Source: Candidatus Hermodarchaeota archaeon
GTDB lineage: Archaea; Asgardarchaeota; Heimdallarchaeia; Hodarchaeales; Hodarchaeaceae
Direction of reading: 5' to 3'
Length of the DNA: 32,000 bases
Assembly: GCA_048886185.1 (NCBI GenBank)
Contig: JBHLKY010000006.1
Span: 90,001-122,000 of the forward strand
This document shows positions 691-18,696 of this stretch, in pieces. The notes beneath the pieces were generated by a model, which was not told the origin of the DNA, did not search any database, and worked only from the letters and a program-made list of their open reading frames with translations. The position numbers were made by a program, and so were the translations under genes. How positions within the stretch are numbered: the stretch's first letter is position 1; every line of letters begins with the position of its first letter.

Positions 691-1938
691 TCAGAAATAG
701 GCATCTAATGTCTTTCGGTTCAAGATTGGACTTTTCTGAAAGTAATAACGCATAGGAATTGTTAAATTGTTAGCAATGAATTTTAGTGCTTTTTGTAAGT
801 CACCAAAACGACGACATGGATTTTTAACCGCTTTACGCATATTTTCACGAACCTGCCATACACCCAATGGAATTGCATACCCTTTTCCTACTTCTCTAAA
901 TGCCACGACTGCAGCTTTCCGTTTTAGCTGATCAAGTTTTTCCAATACAGCAAGTCTTGCAGCATAATATCCTCCAACAGTATTGATTGCATAGGTTGTT
1001 CGTCCATTAGGCCCTTCTGTATCGGTGCCAATAAATGGAGCTGAACCAGTCAAATTCCAAGCACTCTTTCTTTTCCAAGTTTCGTGGTAATCAAAATGCC
1101 ATTCACGTCTAGGAACAAATAAAATCCAAAAATCGTTATCTAAATATGAATTGTGAAACACGAGATAATCCTGAATTTCAGGATTATCCCGAATTTTCCT
1201 TCTGAGATAGTTCCCAGCCATATCGTCAACTGCGGTTATACTCCACCTTGTAGGGACTAATTTACGACTTTTAATTTCCCCTAATAGGCCAGCTGATAGA
1301 ATTCTTGCTATTTGAGTTACTGTTGTATCCACTTTATATAGTTCTGTAACTGCAGGGACAGTTCTTAAATCAGAATCGTTTGTGATGCGTTCTACTTGAT
1401 GACTTACTTTGGGTGTAGAAGCTAGTTGCATTGAATCGACTTTAATGCGAGCCCCCATAGGCTGGGTATAACGATCAAAATTTAAACTTAATTTGGGTTT
1501 TTTGGAGAATTTTACTTCCAATTCAACAGGAGTAAAAGATTGTATTTGCTCTTGTGTGATCTCAAGAATTCTCGATGGGGAAGTTGCTTCCGTTATATGA
1601 ATTGGTTCAGCGATGAACCGAAATAACTGAGCCCGAATGTTAACAACGTCTTCTAATGACATATTCGTTTGCCATAGGTCAGGTTCATCTATTGTATCAA
1701 TACCTTCCCAACTCAACGCTGCCATGGGACCCAATCTAACATTTGGATATCCGAACCTCCCAACAAAAATACTTGGAGGGCTAGGTCCATAGTATTCGTT
1801 TTTTAGTTTAGGTAAAATCTTTCTAACTGGTACTAAAGCTTTTGTTTTCAGAATTATAGGACAATAGGAGAGCCCGCACAAGAATTTACCCCCTTTACAT
1901 CGGAGACACAGCTCTTGTTTTGCAGGGACTCTAACCAT
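691..1938 (-). CDS. nreA: Archaeal DNA repair protein Nre (NreA family)
   Basis: N-terminal C4 cluster CLRCKGGKFLCGLSYCP, motifs PPSIFVGRFGYP, RKLVPTRWSITAVDD, GGYYAARLAV, PLGVWQVRE and a C-terminal PIP-like KTLDAYF. Start moved from ORF-track 2067 to ATG 1938 to remove the overlap with the upstream gene. Confidence 0.93.
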   Translation of the reverse strand: MVRVPAKQELCLRCKGGKFLCGLSYCPIILKTKALVPVRKILPKLKNEYYGPSPPSIFVGRFGYPNVRLGPMAALSWEGIDTIDEPDLWQTNMSLEDVVNIRAQLFRFIAEPIHITEATSPSRILEITQEQIQSFTPVELEVKFSKKPKLSLNFDRYTQPMGARIKVDSMQLASTPKVSHQVERITNDSDLRTVPAVTELYKVDTTVTQIARILSAGLLGEIKSRKLVPTRWSITAVDDMAGNYLRRKIRDNPEIQDYLVFHNSYLDNDFWILFVPRREWHFDYHETWKRKSAWNLTGSAPFIGTDTEGPNGRTTYAINTVGGYYAARLAVLEKLDQLKRKAAVVAFREVGKGYAIPLGVWQVRENMRKAVKNPCRRFGDLQKALKFIANNLTIPMRYYFQKSPILNRKTLDAYF

Positions 1939-1996
1939 AATTTTCTCAACACATATCATTATGTTTAAAGTGGTATTTATGCTTTTGATACCCAGC

Positions 1997-3382
1997 TTAT
2001 AGAGTTGTTTGAATTGGTTTTGAAGAATGAATGATATTAACGTTTTTATAATTTCCCTTCCGTCCAATTACCAAGCTCCCATAAACTCCATCAAACCCAT
2101 AGGGTTCAAATGTAAAATTACCTGCTTTTACTTCCAATAATGCTTGAACAATGTTTTTTTCGATTTGATCACTAAGTTTAGCATCAACTTCTTCAGAAGT
2201 GAATTGCCATAGCATACGTTCTGAACCTAAAAGTCCTGTAATCTGACAATATATATTAGTCAGAGACTTGGATGTCTTAGTTTTTATTTCTAACACATGA
2301 CTTAAGATATCAATTAAGGGTACCATGCGAAAGAACTTTTTTGATGAGCATACTTCCTCAAGCTCTCTTACTACTCCTTGAGCTTTATTAATTTCAACAC
2401 ATCTTTGAAATACTCCAATTGTAAGAGATTTTTTGCATATTGGACAGATGTCATTCGTGGGTACATGTTGTGGAGAAAAAACACAATACTCATTATTAGC
2501 ATGTAACCCAGGGTGTTTCCTTCCAGCACGATGACCAGTTAAGAAATACCTTCCTTCCTCTGGTGGAAATTCAGCTGTATATAATATTTGATTTTTTCGT
2601 AACGCTGAAATAATACTCTTGTATTCAAATTTAGAGACAGAGAGAACAGTAAATTCACGTCCCATCCTGTGCAACGCACTTGAATGAGCGTCAGAACTTG
2701 AAATTAAAACCCTATCGTCCAATTCAGGTATTAATGCTAAAAATTCGGGGTCAGCAGATAGGCCTGTTTCAAAAACATGTAATCGTGGAGTTGCGGATCC
2801 AAAGAAGTCTGTTAGATGATTGATACGAATATTCCCTTTACCTGATCCAAAAACTCCTTGTGGTGTCATGACATGAGCAGGGATAGCTTCTATCCATGGA
2901 TCTAGATCTAAAATCTCATGAAGTCGTTGAGCAACCTGCGTAGAGGCTTGACATGTAATAAAGGGTCGGGCCATCTTTTGATGTTTGACCCCCCATTTAT
3001 CCAATAACTTTCTTAAAGCTTCCACAGAGGAAAAATCAGGAAAAAGAAAGATAACATGTGCTTCCTTTGAATATCTCCCAATTTTTGCAGTGAAAATCAT
3101 TTCTGTTTGCAGAATGAACCGAGTCTGATCTTTACTTTGGAGAAAAAATACTCCATTCATATCCTCGATTAAAATCTCTTTGAGAATATCAGTCCAGATT
3201 GTGAATTGGCAGTCTCCTGTTCCAATTAAATCAATACCTTTCAATGGCATTGTACGATTTGAATTTATTAAGTGAGAAATAGCTTTTTTTCGATTTTCAG
3301 CCCTCTTTTCAGGTTTAATTGCTAGACTTTGAGTTCCCCCAGCAAAAACGGAATGAGCGTGAAGATCAACCGCTACTTTCAA
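1997..3382 (-). CDS. Endonuclease Q family PHP-domain protein
   Basis: DLHAHS, GTGD, PAHVMTP, ETGLSADP, SSSDAHS, GREFT, PEEGRY, CPICKKSLTIGV and GFDGVYG match the EndoQ/PHP family layout; TTG start. Confidence 0.85.
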   Translation of the reverse strand: MKVAVDLHAHSVFAGGTQSLAIKPEKRAENRKKAISHLINSNRTMPLKGIDLIGTGDCQFTIWTDILKEILIEDMNGVFFLQSKDQTRFILQTEMIFTAKIGRYSKEAHVIFLFPDFSSVEALRKLLDKWGVKHQKMARPFITCQASTQVAQRLHEILDLDPWIEAIPAHVMTPQGVFGSGKGNIRINHLTDFFGSATPRLHVFETGLSADPEFLALIPELDDRVLISSSDAHSSALHRMGREFTVLSVSKFEYKSIISALRKNQILYTAEFPPEEGRYFLTGHRAGRKHPGLHANNEYCVFSPQHVPTNDICPICKKSLTIGVFQRCVEINKAQGVVRELEEVCSSKKFFRMVPLIDILSHVLEIKTKTSKSLTNIYCQITGLLGSERMLWQFTSEEVDAKLSDQIEKNIVQALLEVKAGNFTFEPYGFDGVYGSLVIGRKGNYKNVNIIHSSKPIQTTL

Positions 3383-3397
3383 TAACCGTTCTCCTAA

Positions 3398-4711
3398 TTA
3401 TATTTCAGATTTAGTAATGTTAGAGGAATTTTGTTTTAATTTATATTCCAGAACTTGTTCACTAACTAGTTTTAAGAGTCCAACGTCTTTAGTGGAATCA
3501 CCAACCATGAATAAAGAAGTTTGTAATGCACTATCGGTCGCCCACTTCAATGCAATAGCATTTGACCCATGTTGGGACAAAACTATCTGAACCAAATCTG
3601 TACGAAATAATCGTGAACAAAGATTGTTGATTGCAATGAAAATTTGGCATATATATGCATGCTTTCTAGCAACGCGATTATTACTTGTGCGGAGGGTTTC
3701 AAATGTATGCATACTACACCGCAAGAGAGATACTTCTGTAATAATTGGTTTAAAGCTTCTTAGTAGTTCAAAGCTCCCATTTAAAAAATGGTTTTCTGGA
3801 AAAAGGTCACAACTATCCCTAATAGATATTGAATAGCGTGATATATTCGTCTCCACGGTGAGACTACTCTCAATATTTAGATTCCATAATATTTCCCGAA
3901 AGCTTCTAAATAGACTTCCCAGACGTCCTTTACCTGAACTAAATGCAATTATAAAATTATTTCGAATATATAATAGATAAAACTGCTGATTACTATATGT
4001 TTTCCCATGAATCTCGATGGGTAACGCATCAAAGAAAGTTCCATATGTCTTGAGTTCGTCTTCATAATTTTGCATAAGTGAGGGAATAGTATTTACCAAT
4101 GAAACTATATCTGGAGATAAGACAGTATTATGAACAGCTCGGATTGTTCCATCAGAAACTAGAACCGTTTCTTTATCGGTACATATTTCACTAATTCGGT
4201 TTTGAAGTGTATCATCTATTTTTGTTAATAGAATTTTTTTGATGTTCCCAAATACTTTGTGCAGAGAATATATATCCTGATTATTGTTATTTTGAATCTT
4301 AATTTCATGAATAGCCTCTTTTAAAATGTTTGAAAAAGCCAGAGAATGTTGTAATAATTTATCTTGATGAGAACGCGGAATAAATAACATGAAGCTTTCA
4401 ATACGATTTCTTCCTCTAGCTTCAGGATCATCTACCATGAATGAATGTATCAATACCCGTCCTTGAATACCTGTGACATTAATAGGAATAATTGCTGTTT
4501 CAGGATCTCCTGTTGGTTCACCCACCCCAATTGCCATGGTAAATAGTGTAGTAGTAACGCCTTGAAGAATGATTCTGGGGATTTCTAATTCGTGAGTCAA
4601 ATAGGAATCTAGAACAGGGCCATGTTCTTCATCAAAGATAATATGAGCTAAAAAAAACTGAATTGGAATGTCTTCTGGCCTATCAAATGTTCCCATAATT
4701 TTTGGGCTCAC
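3398..4711 (-). CDS. Folliculin/SMCR8-type longin (uDENN-like) domain fused to two roadblock-like domains
   Basis: aa17-135: FDEEHGP and HSFMVDDPEARGRNRIESF resemble the FLCN/SMCR8 longin; aa165-280 and aa308-425 have roadblock-like helix/strand order ending in LGSLF and VGLLKL; GTG start. Confidence 0.6.
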   Translation of the reverse strand: MSPKIMGTFDRPEDIPIQFFLAHIIFDEEHGPVLDSYLTHELEIPRIILQGVTTTLFTMAIGVGEPTGDPETAIIPINVTGIQGRVLIHSFMVDDPEARGRNRIESFMLFIPRSHQDKLLQHSLAFSNILKEAIHEIKIQNNNNQDIYSLHKVFGNIKKILLTKIDDTLQNRISEICTDKETVLVSDGTIRAVHNTVLSPDIVSLVNTIPSLMQNYEDELKTYGTFFDALPIEIHGKTYSNQQFYLLYIRNNFIIAFSSGKGRLGSLFRSFREILWNLNIESSLTVETNISRYSISIRDSCDLFPENHFLNGSFELLRSFKPIITEVSLLRCSMHTFETLRTSNNRVARKHAYICQIFIAINNLCSRLFRTDLVQIVLSQHGSNAIALKWATDSALQTSLFMVGDSTKDVGLLKLVSEQVLEYKLKQNSSNITKSEI

Positions 4712-4860
4712 CTTTTGCTTGTTATGTCTTGATTGAAAAAATCTTTCAAGATTACGATGGAATGGAATGTTCTAATTAGTTTTCTCATTACTTCAATTAA
4801 GTTTTTTTGAATACTCTTAGGAAATTCAACAAATTTTCTTACATCATAGATATCTGCCAT
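4708..4860 (-). CDS. Putative 50-aa small protein, not in the ORF track (MADIYDVRKFVEFPKSIQKNLIEVMRKLIRTFHSIVILKDFFNQDITSKR)
   Basis: ATG at 4860; TGA stop overlaps the GTG start of the next gene (GTGA, 4-nt overlap). Confidence 0.4.
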   Translation of the reverse strand: MADIYDVRKFVEFPKSIQKNLIEVMRKLIRTFHSIVILKDFFNQDITSKR

Positions 4861-4962: not shown

Positions 4963-5274
4963 TTAGGATTTTGATTTCTTTTTCTTTATTAAATCGATGA
5001 TTTCAGCCCATTCTTCTTCCTGTTTTGATTTTTTCGAAGGATTCAGACGATCCTTTACCCCTAATATATCTAATGCCCATTGGCGTTCCTCTTCTCGCTT
5101 TTTCTCCCTTTTAATTTCACGATGTTCTGCTGCACTAATCCAAGTCCCTAAGGCAGCTTCCTGAATACCACAATTGATGCAAACATACAATTTTTCTTCG
5201 GGATTCCAAAATAAAGTCCCTTCCTTACAATTGGTGCAAGGAATCAAAGAATCACGTACAGGAGGTTTGGACAA
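4963..5274 (-). CDS. TFIIB-type zinc-ribbon protein with charged helical C-terminus
   Basis: CTNC...LFWNPEEKLYVCINCG followed by a K/E/R-rich helix; starts 6 nt after the upstream roadblock gene. Confidence 0.75.
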   Translation of the reverse strand: MSKPPVRDSLIPCTNCKEGTLFWNPEEKLYVCINCGIQEAALGTWISAAEHREIKREKKREEERQWALDILGVKDRLNPSKKSKQEEEWAEIIDLIKKKKSKS

Positions 5275-5280
5275 AGTTGA

Positions 5281-5757
5281 TCACTTCTTCTTTGATAAAA
5301 TAATATCTAGTTCTTGGGGAGTAATCTTTAGAGGTCGCCTCAATGGGGGCCATTGTTGGATTATCTGTGAAATAGAATCAACAGCTGGACCAATTATTAA
5401 TTTCAAGAGCTCAAGGTCGACATAAGGATCCATCAATACTCCTAAAAAAGCGATTCGATCAATTGCTTGTAAAAATAGTTTATAATTACTACTTTCAGCG
5501 GTGAAAGAAACCCAAGGGGAACTGCCAATTTCATGACCAATTGTATCCATATTTGATTGAATACCAGCTACTAGTGAGCAAAGAATAAGGCTGCTTTCCT
5601 TACCTAAGGTGCCTTCCAGATTTACCTCCTCGATTAAAAGCCCATCATTATCAACACAGAATCCGGAATAAATACCATCGAGAGAATTCACGATATCTGT
5701 TAAAACTTGTCGTAATCCGATTTCTGATCGTCTTGAAGTATTATTAGAAAAAGACAA
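5281..5757 (-). CDS. Roadblock/LC7 (MglB-like) domain protein
   Basis: LRQVLTDIVNSLDGIYSGFCVDNDGLLIE ... FLGVLMDPYVDLELL is a typical roadblock pattern; TTG start. Confidence 0.82.
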   Translation of the reverse strand: MSFSNNTSRRSEIGLRQVLTDIVNSLDGIYSGFCVDNDGLLIEEVNLEGTLGKESSLILCSLVAGIQSNMDTIGHEIGSSPWVSFTAESSNYKLFLQAIDRIAFLGVLMDPYVDLELLKLIIGPAVDSISQIIQQWPPLRRPLKITPQELDIILSKKK

Positions 5758-13378: not shown

Positions 13379-14275
13379 TCATCCTAAAAAGAACATTACT
13401 ACAGCATAAATTATTCCAATGATTACCGCGTGAGATCCTTCAGGATCAAGAGATTTAGCTGCAAAATAAATTAGTACAACCCCCCAAATCAATATGCCCA
13501 TTTCTATGAAAAAAAGTATATCTCCCGTTATCCCGAGAGGTGTACTCATTGAAGATAGATCAAAAATATCATTTACTACATATGTTGTTGGCTCAGTAAA
13601 TAATGAAAAAAGGATAAGGCGTATCAGTTCACTGAATATTCTGGGGAGAAAACTCCAACCTATAATTGTAGCTATAGTTTTAAAATTTCTTTCATGTGAG
13701 GGAACTTGTGATGAAATTATCGATAATAATATCCACAAAATCACACTCCCGATTAACCAGCTAATGATGAATCCCAAAGGGGCAAAAAAAGCTGTAAATA
13801 TCGTCATAACCTCCACCACTTCTTCCATAGAAATGTCCATTCCTGAAAATCCTAAACTGTCATAAAATGCTTGTGTAAACTCTATTGTTGACTTTGAAGA
13901 GAGAACGAATAAAGCTATACCTGAAATAATTCCAGCTATCAAAACAACAAGAAATGGTTGGCCTAAATTCGGTCGTTTAACTATTCGAGCCATTTCCTGT
14001 TGAGGAGAAATCAGAACTCCTTGAAAATGCTGAAAAAACGGAGAGGGATGCTCAGCTGTTATTCTTTCTGGTCTATAAGAATCAGGATAAGAGGGAGTAC
14101 CTCTATCTCTTACAATTGAGGGGTATGAGGAGGGAGGTTTAGAACTAACTACTCCAGTTGGATCAACAGTTGGCACTGGGGTTCCGCAGTAAGCACAAAA
14201 AGTAGCTCCTCCAAGTAATTTCTGACCACAATTTCCACAGAATTTTGGGGAGCCTTTAGGACTGTTATTACTCAT
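13379..14275 (-). CDS. Double zinc-ribbon plus Yip1-domain membrane protein
   Basis: FCGNCG...FCAYCG, Pro/Ser-rich linker, then VLISP...five hydrophobic segments including IIGWSFLP. Confidence 0.78.
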   Translation of the reverse strand: MSNNSPKGSPKFCGNCGQKLLGGATFCAYCGTPVPTVDPTGVVSSKPPSSYPSIVRDRGTPSYPDSYRPERITAEHPSPFFQHFQGVLISPQQEMARIVKRPNLGQPFLVVLIAGIISGIALFVLSSKSTIEFTQAFYDSLGFSGMDISMEEVVEVMTIFTAFFAPLGFIISWLIGSVILWILLSIISSQVPSHERNFKTIATIIGWSFLPRIFSELIRLILFSLFTEPTTYVVNDIFDLSSMSTPLGITGDILFFIEMGILIWGVVLIYFAAKSLDPEGSHAVIIGIIYAVVMFFLG

Positions 14276-14486
14276 GAAAATCAGCTTTTGGTAGTGAAAT
14301 TTTTCATTAATTATAACAAAGGTACATGGAACATGGATTAAAAAATCTTCTTAGAAGGTTTATTTTAAATATAGACAATAGAACATGTGGTCATGATTGA
14401 TGACAAAAGTCTTCGAATTCTATCAAAAATATTAATGATGAGCGATATTGGAGATTAGATCGAAGAAAAAAAAAACCTATATGCCT

Positions 14487-14804
14487 TTAACTAGAACGAT
14501 CTTTTAACACAACGATAGTAAAGCCTGCAGCCTCATCAGGAGTGATAATTATTTCTGATTTAGGCATTTCTACATAAACACTTTGAAGTCGGCCATGTGA
14601 AAGAGCATCCGACACACTTCGAACCTTCTTAACCAATGATGCAATATGAGCTGATACTCTTTCTGCATCTGATTGTGGGAGATTACTTTGAAGTGGTAGC
14701 CCATCTTCATCACAAACTAAAATTCCTTTCACTCCACGTCGGGCTGCTAATCTTTTGATTGTGTTTTGCAATACAGAAGGTATAACATATTCATCATTAG
14801 ACAT
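14487..14804 (-). CDS. Roadblock/LC7 protein, dynein light chain roadblock (DYNLRB)-like, paralog A
   Basis: TIKRLAARRGVKGILVCDEDGLPLQSNL...KVRS...EIIITPD parallels DYNLRB [28 protein letters not shown]...KARS...EIMVAPD. Confidence 0.88.
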   Translation of the reverse strand: MSNDEYVIPSVLQNTIKRLAARRGVKGILVCDEDGLPLQSNLPQSDAERVSAHIASLVKKVRSVSDALSHGRLQSVYVEMPKSEIIITPDEAAGFTIVVLKDRSS

Positions 14805-14825
14805 TTAATTTCATCTTCCTTTTTA

Positions 14826-15170
14826 TTACTTTGATGTTAATGTCATAGTACTACTCTCCCGTTTTACTAGTGCCACAATAATGATTTCGGAGTCATAATC
14901 AGGAATTATTTCTACATCCCCAACCTCCAACTCTAACCGAATGCTTCTAGCTTCTTCTTGTGAAATTTCCCTTGAAATGCTTCTCACTTTTCCCACCAAA
15001 GAGGCAACATGTGCTGCTACTCTCTCTGTATCCTCTTCTGGAAGACTAGATTGGAGTGGTAATCCATCTGTATCACTCAACACAGCACCATATACTCCTT
15101 TATGTTTCCCGACTGATTCTATAACTTTTTCTAGCGCCTGTTGCGATAAATACCCTGCTTCTTGTGACAT
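14826..15170 (-). CDS. Roadblock/LC7 protein, DYNLRB-like, paralog B
   Basis: HKGVYGAVLSDTDGLPLQSSL...ASLVGKVRS...VEIIPD; shares a long block with the downstream paralog. Confidence 0.88.
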   Translation of the reverse strand: MSQEAGYLSQQALEKVIESVGKHKGVYGAVLSDTDGLPLQSSLPEEDTERVAAHVASLVGKVRSISREISQEEARSIRLELEVGDVEIIPDYDSEIIIVALVKRESSTMTLTSK

Positions 15171-15647
15171 TTTTCATCGTATCCTTAAGTGCCCAAGCAT
15201 ATGATGGCCAACTAATAACGATCTAAACAGTAAATCACAATTGTACTTAAAACCTTTTGCTTATAAGTTAGTGGAATTTTAATACTACTCTTGAGAATTT
15301 ACTTAATAATTCAATCAAATGAATATTCTCTGTACATAAACTTATTACGGTAATTTAAAATGTATAATATCAAAATCGGTTAAAAATTTTGATTTATATG
15401 CCTAAATGGAGCTTTTAAATGGGTATTTAGATACCAACTACTCAGATGTTAAGCTATAAACCAATTATTTGAATTTTTATCCTATTATTTATGGATTAAT
15501 CAATCTAAGAAGAATTTAAGGAAGACTTCATGGTCATCATAGTATGTAAGTGATAAATTAATGTGATTTTATAGAGAGAGTTCTGGTAGGCTAAACCTTA
15601 AAAGCAGCTAAAAACAATGAATTCATAATCCTTGGAGCGCATCGCGA

Positions 15648-16097
15648 TTGGTCCCACATAAAGATGAAAACATTAACACATCCCAAGAAAAACTAGATGA
15701 AATTTTGTCATCTATCAAAGAATTAAGATATCATATTGGCATCTTAGATCACAGAATCTCTCAACTCGAGGGGCATATAGACCAGAAATTATCGACTGTT
15801 ACAAAATCTGTTATCTTTCAATCCAGTGTTGATGATGAACAGAAAACAGATTTTGATGATTTAGATGAACATTTGAAACGGACATATCAAACCTTAGCTA
15901 CTGCTCAGGAACCTCTGACTGCCTCACAATTGGCTGAAAGGATGGGAAGGAGTCGCAGCACAACAAGCTATCATTTAAACAAACTTGAAAAGATGGGAGT
16001 TCTTGAAAAATTCCCAAGCCCATTAAAACAAAGTTCAAGAAGTATTCTTTTCCGTCCGAAAGATCGATCATTTGAATTAATAGACTCAGAGCATTAA
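15648..16097 (+). CDS. Coiled-coil plus winged HTH (ArsR/TrmB-like) transcriptional regulator
   Basis: Heptad-like LDEILSSIKELRYHIGILDHRISQLE, then LTASQLAERMGRSRSTTSYHLNKLEKMGVL; start uncertain (TTG). Confidence 0.8.
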   Translation: MVPHKDENINTSQEKLDEILSSIKELRYHIGILDHRISQLEGHIDQKLSTVTKSVIFQSSVDDEQKTDFDDLDEHLKRTYQTLATAQEPLTASQLAERMGRSRSTTSYHLNKLEKMGVLEKFPSPLKQSSRSILFRPKDRSFELIDSEH

Positions 16098-16151
16098 ATT
16101 TTCTTCTGTATAATTTATTAAAGGAAAAAAGTTGAAAAAGAGTTTTATTAA

Positions 16152-16688
16152 TCAAGAGGTAAACTCTAGAATTTCTTTCCCTAATTGATCGAAAGCAGCT
16201 TGAACCCCATCACCTGTTTTCGCACTAGTTTCAATGAAACTTAATCCAAGACGGTCAGCAAGCTTTTTACCTTCTTCTGTAGACACGGTTTCTGTTCCTT
16301 CCTCACGTAAATCAGTTTTATTTGCCAAGAGAACCACAGGTACGTCTTGATCACGTTTAGAGTTAGCTAAAATGTCTTTGAGCCATTTTTCCACATTTTC
16401 AAACGTTTGTCGTCGTGTGATGTCATAAACAAGGATTCCACCAAAAACTTTTGTATAATAAGCCTTTACAACATCTTTAAACACAGGTTGTCCGGCGAGA
16501 TCCCATATTTGCCAACGAATATGCGTATTATTTACTGTTGTATCATATAGGGCGAAATCGGCGCCCATCGTACTTAAATAATCAGTTTCAAACCCCTCAC
16601 CTAAGTAACGTTTACGTAGAGAGGTTTTGCCAACAGCTCCGTCTCCCAGTAGTACAATCTTCCATAAACGATGATCCTCATTACTCAA
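16152..16688 (-). CDS. Rab-like small GTPase (Asgard type)
   Basis: G1 GDGAVGKT, G2 YLSTMGADF, G3 WDLAGQ, G4 NKTD, G5 ETSAK; AAGGTGA SD before the TTG start; no C-terminal cysteine. Confidence 0.95.
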   Translation of the reverse strand: MSNEDHRLWKIVLLGDGAVGKTSLRKRYLGEGFETDYLSTMGADFALYDTTVNNTHIRWQIWDLAGQPVFKDVVKAYYTKVFGGILVYDITRRQTFENVEKWLKDILANSKRDQDVPVVLLANKTDLREEGTETVSTEEGKKLADRLGLSFIETSAKTGDGVQAAFDQLGKEILEFTS

Positions 16689-16992
16689 CTATTTCACCTT
16701 ACATTTTTCTTATTTAGCTAGATTTAATAGTTCAATTGTCTTCTAAATTCGTTATATAAAGGTTTCAATCCTACACATATAGTGATGAAAGAGATTCTCT
16801 AGTCTCCAGCTGTAGTCTCACTGAGACATATTTTTTCTTCATCAATATTTGCTTATATCTGTGTTTTACTTGTTTTAACTCAATTTTCTTATAACACATA
16901 AATATCATTTGATTCGTGAGGAAGGTGCCAAAAAAATTAGAAGTTCAACACAATTTAAACTTTATAGAATTCTCGGATCCAGAAATTAAAAA

Positions 16993-18696
16993 TTAATCAT
17001 CTGATTTGGAATTAATATGAGACACTTGTCTCACATATCCTCGTCTTCGCAATTCTTCGAGGCATTCAAGCTCTAAATTTTGGTCTCGTTTTGTTATTTC
17101 TGTAGCTGTTTCGGGAGAAAGCACTTTGGAAGTAAGTAGAGCTCTAATAGTGGGTCTCAATTTTTCTGGTAGATCTAGAATTCCTAAAGTATCAAAGGGC
17201 TGAATTTGGACATATTTGGGAGGTTCCGAACATACACAAATCTTTCTCCCAATTTCTTCTTCCAATTTATGTCTTTTAGACCGTGGATTAATTCCTAATT
17301 TAAGCAAATAGTCATGTCTAGGATTATGGGCAGTTGTAAACTCATAAAGCAATAAATCAGTGACAAAAGGGTCACTGATGTTTTTCTGAACATAATTATG
17401 GAATAAGATTTCAGGATCGCCTCTTAATAGATCCATTTCAGCCCCGTATGCAAGTATATTCTGTCGTAACTGCTCATTTACAGTCACTATATCAAAAACA
17501 TATGTTTCAAAAATTTCTTCAACATATTTCGTTGCCCCCGCAAATCCACTAGTCTTTCCAGTCTTAGAAAAAATATCTATTGCTTCTTTGAATTCTTTCT
17601 CAAATCTCGTTATATATTGAAAAAGTAATTCGGTTAAGTTATCACTCATAATCGGGCTATAAAGAATACCAATTACATGTTTCCCCTTCCTTTGAGCAAT
17701 TTTCATGTTTCCATTATCAATATAGCGTAAATCGCCGCGACGCCCAGCTGTTTCTGATACCATATGAGCTATGCTAGTTAACGCTGCTGTAATAAGGGCA
17801 GGATTTTTCATTTCATCCTCTGCCTTTCCAAAAAAGTAATAATACATAGTTGATCCTGATTCACGATCTGTAATAAATAAAGCTATAGGTGAAGCTTCTG
17901 TTCCAATAGTAATCCAATCAAACTCTTCTTTTTCTGTGAATTCTTGGAATTTTTCACTCAAATCTTGAAATGTTTCATTCACAATAGATTGTGGTGATTC
18001 TAAATAATAAACACCTTGATCAGAAAAGTCATTAAGTTCAGGAATCCACGGGATTGCATAGAAAATCGGGTGTCTGAATTTTGATTCCATTTGTGTGAGG
18101 AATTGATCGAATTTACCAAAAACTAAAGGAAATTTGACCATGTTCATGATTAATAAAGTAGGTGTGGTAAGGAAGGACAAAAAGTTTTGAATAGTAGATT
18201 TTGTTAGATTAAATGTAGGGTACTTTTCTGATGAAATAACCCAAACCATATCACTCTGTAGAATTGTAGCCATTGTAATACTGTTTTCTTCTAAGCTCAC
18301 AGGGAGAATGAACACTAAAAGATCGATGGTATCCTTGAAAAAGAGGGCGTTGACACGATATTTAGTACGTTCTCTTAAATCACTTGTTGGCAATGGACAC
18401 CCTGCAGAAGGAAGAACACGTATAAAGGATCCTTTATCCTCATCCTCGAAGATTGATAAAGATTCGCTTACAAGAATATCTTCAGATATCTCGCTTAGAA
18501 AATCTGTACTAGTAAAATTCGATTTACCATATCTAAGTAAAGTATATCTTAGTTTTTCAGTAATGGAAAAATCAACAATAAGAATACGAAGTCCAGGCTT
18601 TGAACGGGCATAAGCTAAAAGGGCATTTAATGCGATTGTTTTTTTCCCACAACTAGGGGTACGAGAATAAACACTTATGATTTTGGGAGTTACCAT
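16993..18696 (-). CDS. Degenerate MinD/ParA-like domain fused to a longin domain and a C-terminal winged helix
   Basis: aa1-255: MinD-like order of motifs (IISVYS..SCGKKT, ILIVD, SDMVWV, LIMN, AIPW, ESPQS). aa270-397: longin pattern (LFITDRESG, LITAALTSI, YITRFEKEF, F...VEEIF). About aa505-560: wHTH (LEELRRRGYV). Confidence 0.68.
   Translation of the reverse strand: MVTPKIISVYSRTPSCGKKTIALNALLAYARSKPGLRILIVDFSITEKLRYTLLRYGKSNFTSTDFLSEISEDILVSESLSIFEDEDKGSFIRVLPSAGCPLPTSDLRERTKYRVNALFFKDTIDLLVFILPVSLEENSITMATILQSDMVWVISSEKYPTFNLTKSTIQNFLSFLTTPTLLIMNMVKFPLVFGKFDQFLTQMESKFRHPIFYAIPWIPELNDFSDQGVYYLESPQSIVNETFQDLSEKFQEFTEKEEFDWITIGTEASPIALFITDRESGSTMYYYFFGKAEDEMKNPALITAALTSIAHMVSETAGRRGDLRYIDNGNMKIAQRKGKHVIGILYSPIMSDNLTELLFQYITRFEKEFKEAIDIFSKTGKTSGFAGATKYVEEIFETYVFDIVTVNEQLRQNILAYGAEMDLLRGDPEILFHNYVQKNISDPFVTDLLLYEFTTAHNPRHDYLLKLGINPRSKRHKLEEEIGRKICVCSEPPKYVQIQPFDTLGILDLPEKLRPTIRALLTSKVLSPETATEITKRDQNLELECLEELRRRGYVRQVSHINSKSDD

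Follow-up and report, generated by a model that had tools for sequence, protein, structure and literature searches.

The window analysed here is a stretch of 32,000 nucleotides from the assembly GCA_048886185.1 of a Candidatus Hermodarchaeota archaeon placed in the Hodarchaeales (contig JBHLKY010000006.1, positions 90,001 to 122,000), with a G+C content of about 35%. It carries on its reverse strand a gene for a protein composed of an N-terminal longin domain of the type present in folliculin (FLCN) and SMCR8, designated LD1, and a C-terminal half that resembles a tandem pair of Roadblock domains. The domain-level interpretation, i.e. an FLCN/SMCR8-type longin with both signature motifs, is supported by a Pfam match, a structural model, and residue conservation; we infer in addition that the protein may bind a small GTPase and be a GTPase-activating protein (GAP) for it. 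The gene and its parts are listed below, with residues counted from the GTG codon at 4711.

3398 to 4711, reverse strand: gene of the FLCN-type longin protein, 437 amino acids from the GTG at 4711, taken from the list of open reading frames and the translation.

4217 to 4666, reverse strand: LD1, the Folliculin/SMCR8-type longin domain (residues 16-165), with the order strand-strand-helix-strand-strand-strand-helix.

4616 to 4621, reverse strand: Gly31-Pro32, the 'GP motif' (in FDEEHGP) at the start of strand 2, invariant in the family alignments.

4415 to 4417, reverse strand: Arg99 (AGA), the candidate arginine finger in the motif D-x-x-A-R-G, based on the codon, on conservation, and on the model, which places the residue in a loop connecting strands 4 and 5.

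3851 to 4216, reverse strand: middle alpha/beta module (residues 166-287), with a longin/Roadblock-like order of strands and helices.

3416 to 3805, reverse strand: C-terminal Roadblock domain (residues 303-432; the module in the model comprises residues 296-435).

Translation probably starts at the ATG at 4696, five codons after the GTG, because the database form and the homologues begin there (MGTFD...); the protein would then comprise 432 amino acids and Arg99 would become Arg94. The translation and the coordinates in the preliminary description of the sequence, according to which residues 17-135 correspond to 4663-4307 and the arginine of DDPEARG is residue 99 with the codon AGA at 4417-4415, agree with a direct reading of the DNA.

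In a Pfam search, the model PF11704 (Folliculin) matched residues 82-146 over profile positions 44-106 with 27.8 bits and an E value of 2.6e-6, the curated cut-off of this model being 23.3 bits, and of the 29 members of the family examined, 25 were matched by it at E <= 0.1. An AlphaFold2 model built from 29 homologues (predicted local distance difference test score, pLDDT, 86.3; predicted template modelling score, pTM, 0.82) contains a canonical longin fold at residues 19-142, which is formed by strands 19-27 and 31-40, a helix at 46-62, strands 71-79, 82-94, and 102-112, and a second helix at 113-142. When LD1 was compared with known structures, the FLCN-class longins led every other longin class by 3-6 Z units, lower Z values being obtained for sedlin/TRAPPC2 (about 11), NPRL2/3 (about 10-11), and the longins of Mon1/Ccz1/Fuzzy or DENND1 (about 8.5-8.9); the top match was another archaeal longin (8yqg_A), and the identity to FLCN in the structural alignment was 16-18%. 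Neighbours by shape in the ESM Atlas were a heimdallarchaeotal PF11704 cluster and the eukaryotic C9orf72, SMCR8, Folliculin, and NPR2 clusters, and those found with a protein language model were NPR2, C9orf72-like, NPRL3, and LST7 clusters (scores 0.82-0.91). The resemblance to folliculin thus goes beyond chance, and the earlier proposal of a folliculin/SMCR8-type longin was borne out by the match above the cut-off, by the predicted longin fold, and by the ranking of FLCN-class longins over the other classes.

Two motifs within LD1 are of particular relevance. In the AlphaFold2 model, Gly31-Pro32 open strand 2 (31-40), and Arg99 is located in the loop between strand 4 (82-94) and strand 5 (102-112). 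An alignment of 27 homologues with identities down to 28% has 21 invariant columns, 17 of which lie within LD1 and include G31, P32, and R99. Upon addition of two paralogous longins with only 17-20% identity, seven positions of LD1 are still invariant (F26, D27, G31, P32, F57, R99, and G100), and the presence of both motifs in this small set is the strongest evidence for functional constraint on them. In the cryo-EM study of the C9orf72-SMCR8 complex, R147 of SMCR8 was placed in the betaL4-betaL5 loop and equated with R164 of FLCN (bioRxiv 10.1101/2020.04.16.045708). At the position corresponding to Gly31-Pro32, the GP motif was described for FLCN, SMCR8, C9orf72, and NPRL2 and as absent from non-GAP longins, the non-catalytic partners FNIP2 and NPRL3 likewise being reported to be devoid of it (Traffic 2025, PMC12290439). 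The suggestion that Arg99 occupies the position of FLCN R164 and SMCR8 R147 holds in the model at the level of the loop, and its invariance in the 27 homologues and the two paralogues rules out that the residue is not conserved.

The two paralogues are encoded by consecutive giant reading frames on contig C13 (C13:1-6681 and C13:6685-11379; loci L014, L015, and L008), which comprise at least 2227 amino acids, the first frame running off the contig start, and 1565 amino acids, respectively. In both, a hydrophobic stretch that spans the membrane is situated about 170-190 residues from the end and is followed by a C-terminal FLCN-type longin with the motifs FDQV(K/Q)GP and (E/A)ARGG, for which PF11704 gives scores of 18.8 and 19.3 bits, i.e. 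below the cut-off. These proteins have the appearance of receptors whose cytoplasmic domain is a GAP-like longin, and they could be partners of LD1.

Beyond LD1, the model contains two further alpha/beta modules (residues 166-287 and 296-435). In fold searches, the C-terminal 270 residues match a tandem Roadblock-like pair; both modules together can be superimposed on an Asgard cluster of the ESM Atlas annotated as Robl_LC7 with a template modelling (TM) score of 0.67 over 233 residues and on bacterial hypothetical proteins with TM-scores of 0.57-0.64. Both the C-terminal domain and a 158-residue protein encoded upstream, by the first of the following two genes, have the Roadblock fold (helix-strand-strand-helix-strand-strand-strand, a last helix being optional) and a family signal.

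5281 to 5757, reverse strand: gene of a Roadblock/LC7/MglB-family protein of 158 amino acids, the predicted partner, based on Pfam Robl_LC7 and on complex prediction.

4963 to 5274, reverse strand: gene of a zinc-ribbon protein of 103 amino acids between the Roadblock gene and the FLCN-like gene, based on weak zinc-ribbon Pfam hits.

The 158-residue protein matches Pfam Robl_LC7 with an E value of 4.8e-4 and has 69 homologues, several of which are named Roadblock/LC7/MglB in their source. A Roadblock-like gene is found directly upstream of, or near, the homologue of the FLCN-like gene in four loci of other genomes (L001, L004, L006, and L011), and in three of them (L001, L004, and L006) a small gene near the FLCN-like gene is homologous to that of the 158-residue protein. 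Complex prediction for the FLCN-like protein and its Roadblock neighbour yielded an interface score (ipSAE) of 0.61, the best control reaching 0.00, and passed a mark that is reached by 58 of 80 solved complexes and by 2 of 110 mismatched pairs; at least 78% of the contacts are common to the runs, and the pLDDT of the partner is at least 80. On the side of the FLCN-like protein, the predicted interface involves residues 235-272 and 304-424, including the invariant G411 and L413 (the invariant S406 lies in the same segment and is not among the listed contacts), and on the Roadblock side the nearly invariant residues 35-44. The 158-residue protein is thus predicted to bind the C-terminal Roadblock domain. 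As Roadblock-Roadblock dimers are well represented among solved structures, the passing of the mark may partly reflect likeness to them.

The remaining neighbourhood is arranged on the same strand, with the Roadblock and zinc-ribbon genes upstream and, downstream, a gene for a PHP/zinc-ribbon protein of the family TIGR00375 (window 1997-3382, reverse strand) followed by an archaeal Nre gene (691-2067, reverse strand), and the genes are arranged in the same way in L001, a relative with 78% identity. The TIGR00375 PHP protein is presumably EndoQ-like; in the distant locus L006, its counterpart (43% identity) likewise adjoins the FLCN-like homologue directly on the downstream side. The zinc-ribbon gene is conserved in L001 and was not found in loci L002-L015, and it is therefore probably no core part of the arrangement. 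An open reading frame of 50 amino acids (4708-4860, reverse strand), whose stop codon overlaps the GTG of the FLCN-like frame, is not conserved in L001 and is for this reason probably no gene; the gap of 258 nt in L001 contains no called gene. A scan for bacterial-type promoters and terminators, which is unsuited to archaea, gave counts no higher than in shuffled sequence.

Candidate substrates can be sought among the small GTPases. In five of the seven more distant loci, whose homologues have 28-38% identity, a gene for a small Ras/Arf-type GTPase lies directly beside the homologue (L002, L009, L004, L006, and L012). The 4.8-Mb genome itself contains 74 matches to GTPase profiles, about 38-45 of which are compact Ras/Rab/Arf-like small GTPases; several of the GTPases are encoded in tandem pairs, e.g. 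C8:7645-8763, C16:21263-22553, and C5:135168-136356. In a tree of 38 genomic and the 5 operon-linked GTPases, C15:28012-28551 is the sister of the GTPases from L002 and L009 (support 96/91), the GTPase of L004 is Arf-like, and those of L006 and L012 are on long branches. C15:28012-28551 was considered as a substrate lead, and its neighbourhood (metallophosphoesterase, DnaJ, thioredoxin) gave no link. The GTPase encoded in the window at 16152-16688, which had been named in the preliminary description for co-folding with the longin, was rejected as specific substrate candidate, although it may still be a substrate: it is 36% identical to the operon GTPase of L002, groups in the tree with another genomic paralogue apart from the operon GTPases, and thus has no specific relation to the GTPases adjoining homologues elsewhere. 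A GTPase of a different kind is encoded in one distant relative (L010:3264-4976), where a protein of 393 amino acids with MMR_HSR1 and TGS domains, not Ras-like, is located upstream of the small protein preceding the FLCN-like gene. A second GTPase-regulator cluster is situated 9 kb away in the window (13379-18696, both strands) and encodes a zinc-ribbon protein with a Yip1 domain, two tandem Roadblock/LC7 (LAMTOR5-like) proteins, a helix-turn-helix regulator, a Ras-like GTPase of 178 amino acids, and a protein of 567 amino acids without a Pfam hit.

We propose that the protein is a soluble regulator with three modules that would act on a small GTPase of the Ras superfamily. The first module, the Folliculin/SMCR8-type longin, carries the marks of the eukaryotic longin GAPs, namely Gly-Pro at the turn between strands 1 and 2 and the arginine in the strand 4-strand 5 loop, and the second and third modules, as modelled, form a tandem Roadblock-like pair, the last of which would dock the Roadblock protein encoded two genes upstream to give a Ragulator/MglB-like Roadblock platform. 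The longin face would bind the GTP form of the cognate small GTPase, into which Arg99 would be inserted as an arginine finger, leading to faster GTP hydrolysis. We regard this GAP mechanism as plausible, the balance of the evidence lying just short of even.

Several observations weigh against it. FLCN, SMCR8, and NPRL2 were not reached when all chain sequences of the PDB were searched with phmmer and with two profiles (whole protein and LD1); the sequence signal is therefore weak and dependent on the Pfam profile, and the link to FLCN rests on one Pfam model together with fold similarity. R85 is a second arginine that is likewise invariant in the 27-sequence alignment, and the most conserved stretch of the protein is not the Arg99 loop, but residues 48-76 (window 4484-4570, reverse strand; ILQGVTTTLFTMAIGVGEPTGEPxTAIIP), which extend from helix 1 through strand 3 and include a loop (61-70) modelled with lower confidence; Arg99 is therefore not the sole candidate for a functional site. 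The eukaryotic longin GAPs work only as longin heterodimers, the longin of SMCR8 alone being inactive (bioRxiv 10.1101/2020.04.16.045708); no heterodimeric longin partner of LD1 was detected, and the genome contains one full-length copy of the gene. Neither this genome nor its close relative L001 has a GTPase gene adjacent to the FLCN-like gene, the five operon-linked GTPases of the relatives do not form a single clade, and no activity assay of any archaeal member was found in the literature. A C-terminal DENN module is characteristic of FLCN, SMCR8, FNIP, and C9orf72 and absent from Lst7. For the C-terminal half of the archaeal protein a DENN reading appears unlikely, as no DENN entry was among the matches listed when its fold was searched twice in solved structures and once in the ESM Atlas, and language-model leads to Folliculin_C, SMCR8_C, and DENND11 were weak and sub-threshold (0.85-0.89). 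The arginine-finger GAP interpretation put forward in advance was supported in part, namely for the longin type, the arginine motif, and the fold; the C-terminal half is modelled as a Roadblock-like pair.

Of the two main alternatives, the first and rather unlikely one is that the protein is a guanine nucleotide exchange factor (GEF) or a nucleotide-state-specific platform, in which the longin face would bind the GTPase as in Mon1-Ccz1, CPLANE, BLOC-3, TRAPP, and Ragulator and the conserved arginine and GP motif would contribute to binding or to the stability of the fold. Subunits of tri-longin Rab GEF complexes are indeed the top Foldseek matches of the full-length protein, all of them whole-length (MON1A-CCZ1 chain 9lol_B with an E value of 1.2e-8, CPLANE 7q3e_B with 3.3e-8, BLOC-3 with 2.3e-5), and the C-terminal half alone again matches domains 2-3 of Mon1/Ccz1/CPLANE (E 2e-6 to 4e-4) besides Roadblock proteins. 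Platforms of longin and Roadblock domains are mostly GEFs or scaffolds (PMC10933270), and a GEF function was proposed for an Asgard Roadblock/GTPase/DENN module (Liu et al., bioRxiv 10.1101/2020.10.19.343400). The TM-scores of the tri-longin matches, however, lie at only 0.17-0.26, and the full-length matches include phytochrome- and PAS-type tandem domains as well, with E values of about 1e-4, so that part of the tri-longin signal amounts to 'three tandem alpha/beta domains' and the likeness, as modelled, is architectural rather than demonstrated homology. In addition, the GP motif is reported to be specific for GAP longins (PMC12290439), a second tri-longin paralogue for the usual heterodimer was not found in the genome by profile search, and none of the 29 family members has a Mon1 or Ccz1 Pfam hit.

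It also appears improbable that the protein is a non-catalytic adaptor or sensor, which as a scaffold with its Roadblock neighbour and perhaps the C13 longins would hold a GTPase or some other client in place or keep it sequestered, with the conserved motifs as interface residues. Such a role would agree with the fact that Roadblock-Roadblock docking is the sole computationally supported interaction, with the lack of an adjacent GTPase gene here and in L001, with the peak of conservation at residues 48-76 outside the Arg loop, and with the downstream neighbour conserved in two lineages, a PHP/EndoQ-like gene unrelated to GTPases; moreover, FNIP, NPRL3, and the LAMTORs are non-catalytic proteins of the same fold class (PMC10933270, PMC12290439). 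Scaffolding alone, however, hardly explains why both GAP-signature motifs are strictly invariant in paralogues with only seven positions of LD1 in common, the non-catalytic FNIP2 and NPRL3 are reported without the GP motif (PMC12290439), and GTPase genes do adjoin the homologue in the five distant loci named above. That a generic Asgard longin carries the tripeptide A-R-G by convergence or chance is very improbable, since the missed PDB sequences, the 16-18% identity to FLCN, and the archaeal best match 8yqg_A, which could be explained in this way, are opposed by a Pfam match above the curated cut-off recurring in 25 of 29 members, two independent motifs at the topologically expected places, the lead of the FLCN-class longins by 3-6 Z units, and the language-model neighbours.

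Folliculin (human FLCN; yeast Lst7) is the catalytic subunit of the FLCN-FNIP RagC/D GAP. Besides its low identity to FLCN, the archaeal protein differs from it in having a Roadblock-like pair with no DENN entry listed for the C-terminal part, in the lack of an identified FNIP-like partner, in the Ras/Rab-like or Arf-like rather than Rag GTPases adjoining the genes of relatives, and in the absence of a lysosome or mTORC1 context. SMCR8, which together with C9orf72 is an Arf/Rab GAP, needs the C9orf72 longin and has a DENN module and long inserts, whereas no heterodimeric longin partner was detected for the archaeal protein. Like the tri-longin Rab GEF subunits (Mon1, Ccz1, Fuzzy, Inturned, HPS1, and HPS4), it would consist, as modelled, of a single chain of about 400-450 residues in which three alpha/beta modules of the longin/Roadblock type follow one another; it differs from them in its FLCN-type LD1 with an arginine finger motif, which these GEFs are not known to use, in the TM-scores of about 0.2, and in the lack of a sequence-family match and of a paralogous partner subunit. 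Also among the closest known systems are the Lokiarchaeota Roadblock-Longin protein (PDB 8yqg, 8yqk), which has the reversed order, Roadblock followed by longin, and the MglB and LAMTOR2/3 Roadblock dimers; MglB, itself devoid of an arginine finger, acts as a GAP.

Proteins of this kind have already been published for Heimdallarchaeia, and the idea of an FLCN-type protein is not new. FLCN-like proteins were described in this class together with an operon for a Roadblock-superfamily protein, a Rab-like GTPase, and a DENN protein (Liu et al., bioRxiv 10.1101/2020.10.19.343400), and 15 heimdallarchaeial 'Folliculin/SMCR8 longin domain-containing' proteins were analysed for which a possible shared GAP activity was proposed, with Asgard Arf-related or Rag GTPases as potential clients (Traffic 2025, PMC12290439). 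They belong to the same lineage, have the same LD1 type and the same two conserved motifs as the protein described here, and their Roadblock/small GTPase/FLCN-like neighbourhood is the one present in L006, L002, and L009. The downstream part is called DENN or left undescribed in these papers and is modelled here as a Roadblock-like pair; the present analysis adds this architecture of the C-terminal half, the Roadblock protein as predicted partner, the GTPase genes found next to homologues in relatives, and the two paralogues with a membrane anchor. In the literature, neither a paper joining 'tri-longin' and 'Asgard' nor one on the structures of the Loki Roadblock-Longin protein (8yqg) was found.

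Nutrient signalling at the lysosome is under the control of longin GAPs (FLCN-FNIP, GATOR1, and C9orf72-SMCR8), which are encoded by disease genes. Whether their arginine-finger chemistry predates the eukaryotes is a question already being asked, which this locus leaves unchanged and makes more testable, as it offers a compact, well-modelled, single-copy Hodarchaeales family with a predicted Roadblock partner; the operon-encoded GTPases of relatives are potential direct substrates and would provide testable enzyme-substrate pairs. Based on the models, the functions of a longin GAP and of a Roadblock platform may once have been joined in one chain. A 'missing link' in a wider sense, in which an FLCN-type catalytic longin fused to a Roadblock pair recruits a further Roadblock subunit and forms with the C13 paralogues a receptor-coupled small-GTPase switch, is a speculative and rather doubtful extension. 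If true, a single archaeal assembly would combine the longin GAP (FLCN/SMCR8/NPRL2) and the Roadblock platform (Ragulator or the C-terminal domains of the Rags) that are split in eukaryotes, it would anticipate the arrangement of three domains in the tri-longin Rab GEFs, and it would represent a GTPase switch in the closest relatives of eukaryotes.

The 76 homologues of the protein all derive from metagenome-assembled genomes (MAGs) of the Heimdall/Hodarchaeales type and are all annotated as hypothetical. A profile search revealed a single full-length copy in the genome studied here, which is 96% complete; of the 16 other genomes sampled from the genus, 15 contain the gene, and at E <= 1e-10 the family was absent from the 234 genomes sampled elsewhere in the phylum. 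When 1.8 billion cluster representatives were searched exhaustively, only 16 clusters were returned, and a word-limited search with the LD1 profile for fused forms among longer proteins returned none, only the family of about 420-440 amino acids being recovered. More distant members are scattered among other MAGs of the Heimdall type, one further such member coming from a MAG with the label Hermodarchaeota, and a family member with RefSeq-type (WP_) accessions is present in Candidatus Hodarchaeum mangrovi. The orthologue in genome G238 of the same genus (C238:16174-17412) contains one in-frame TGA.

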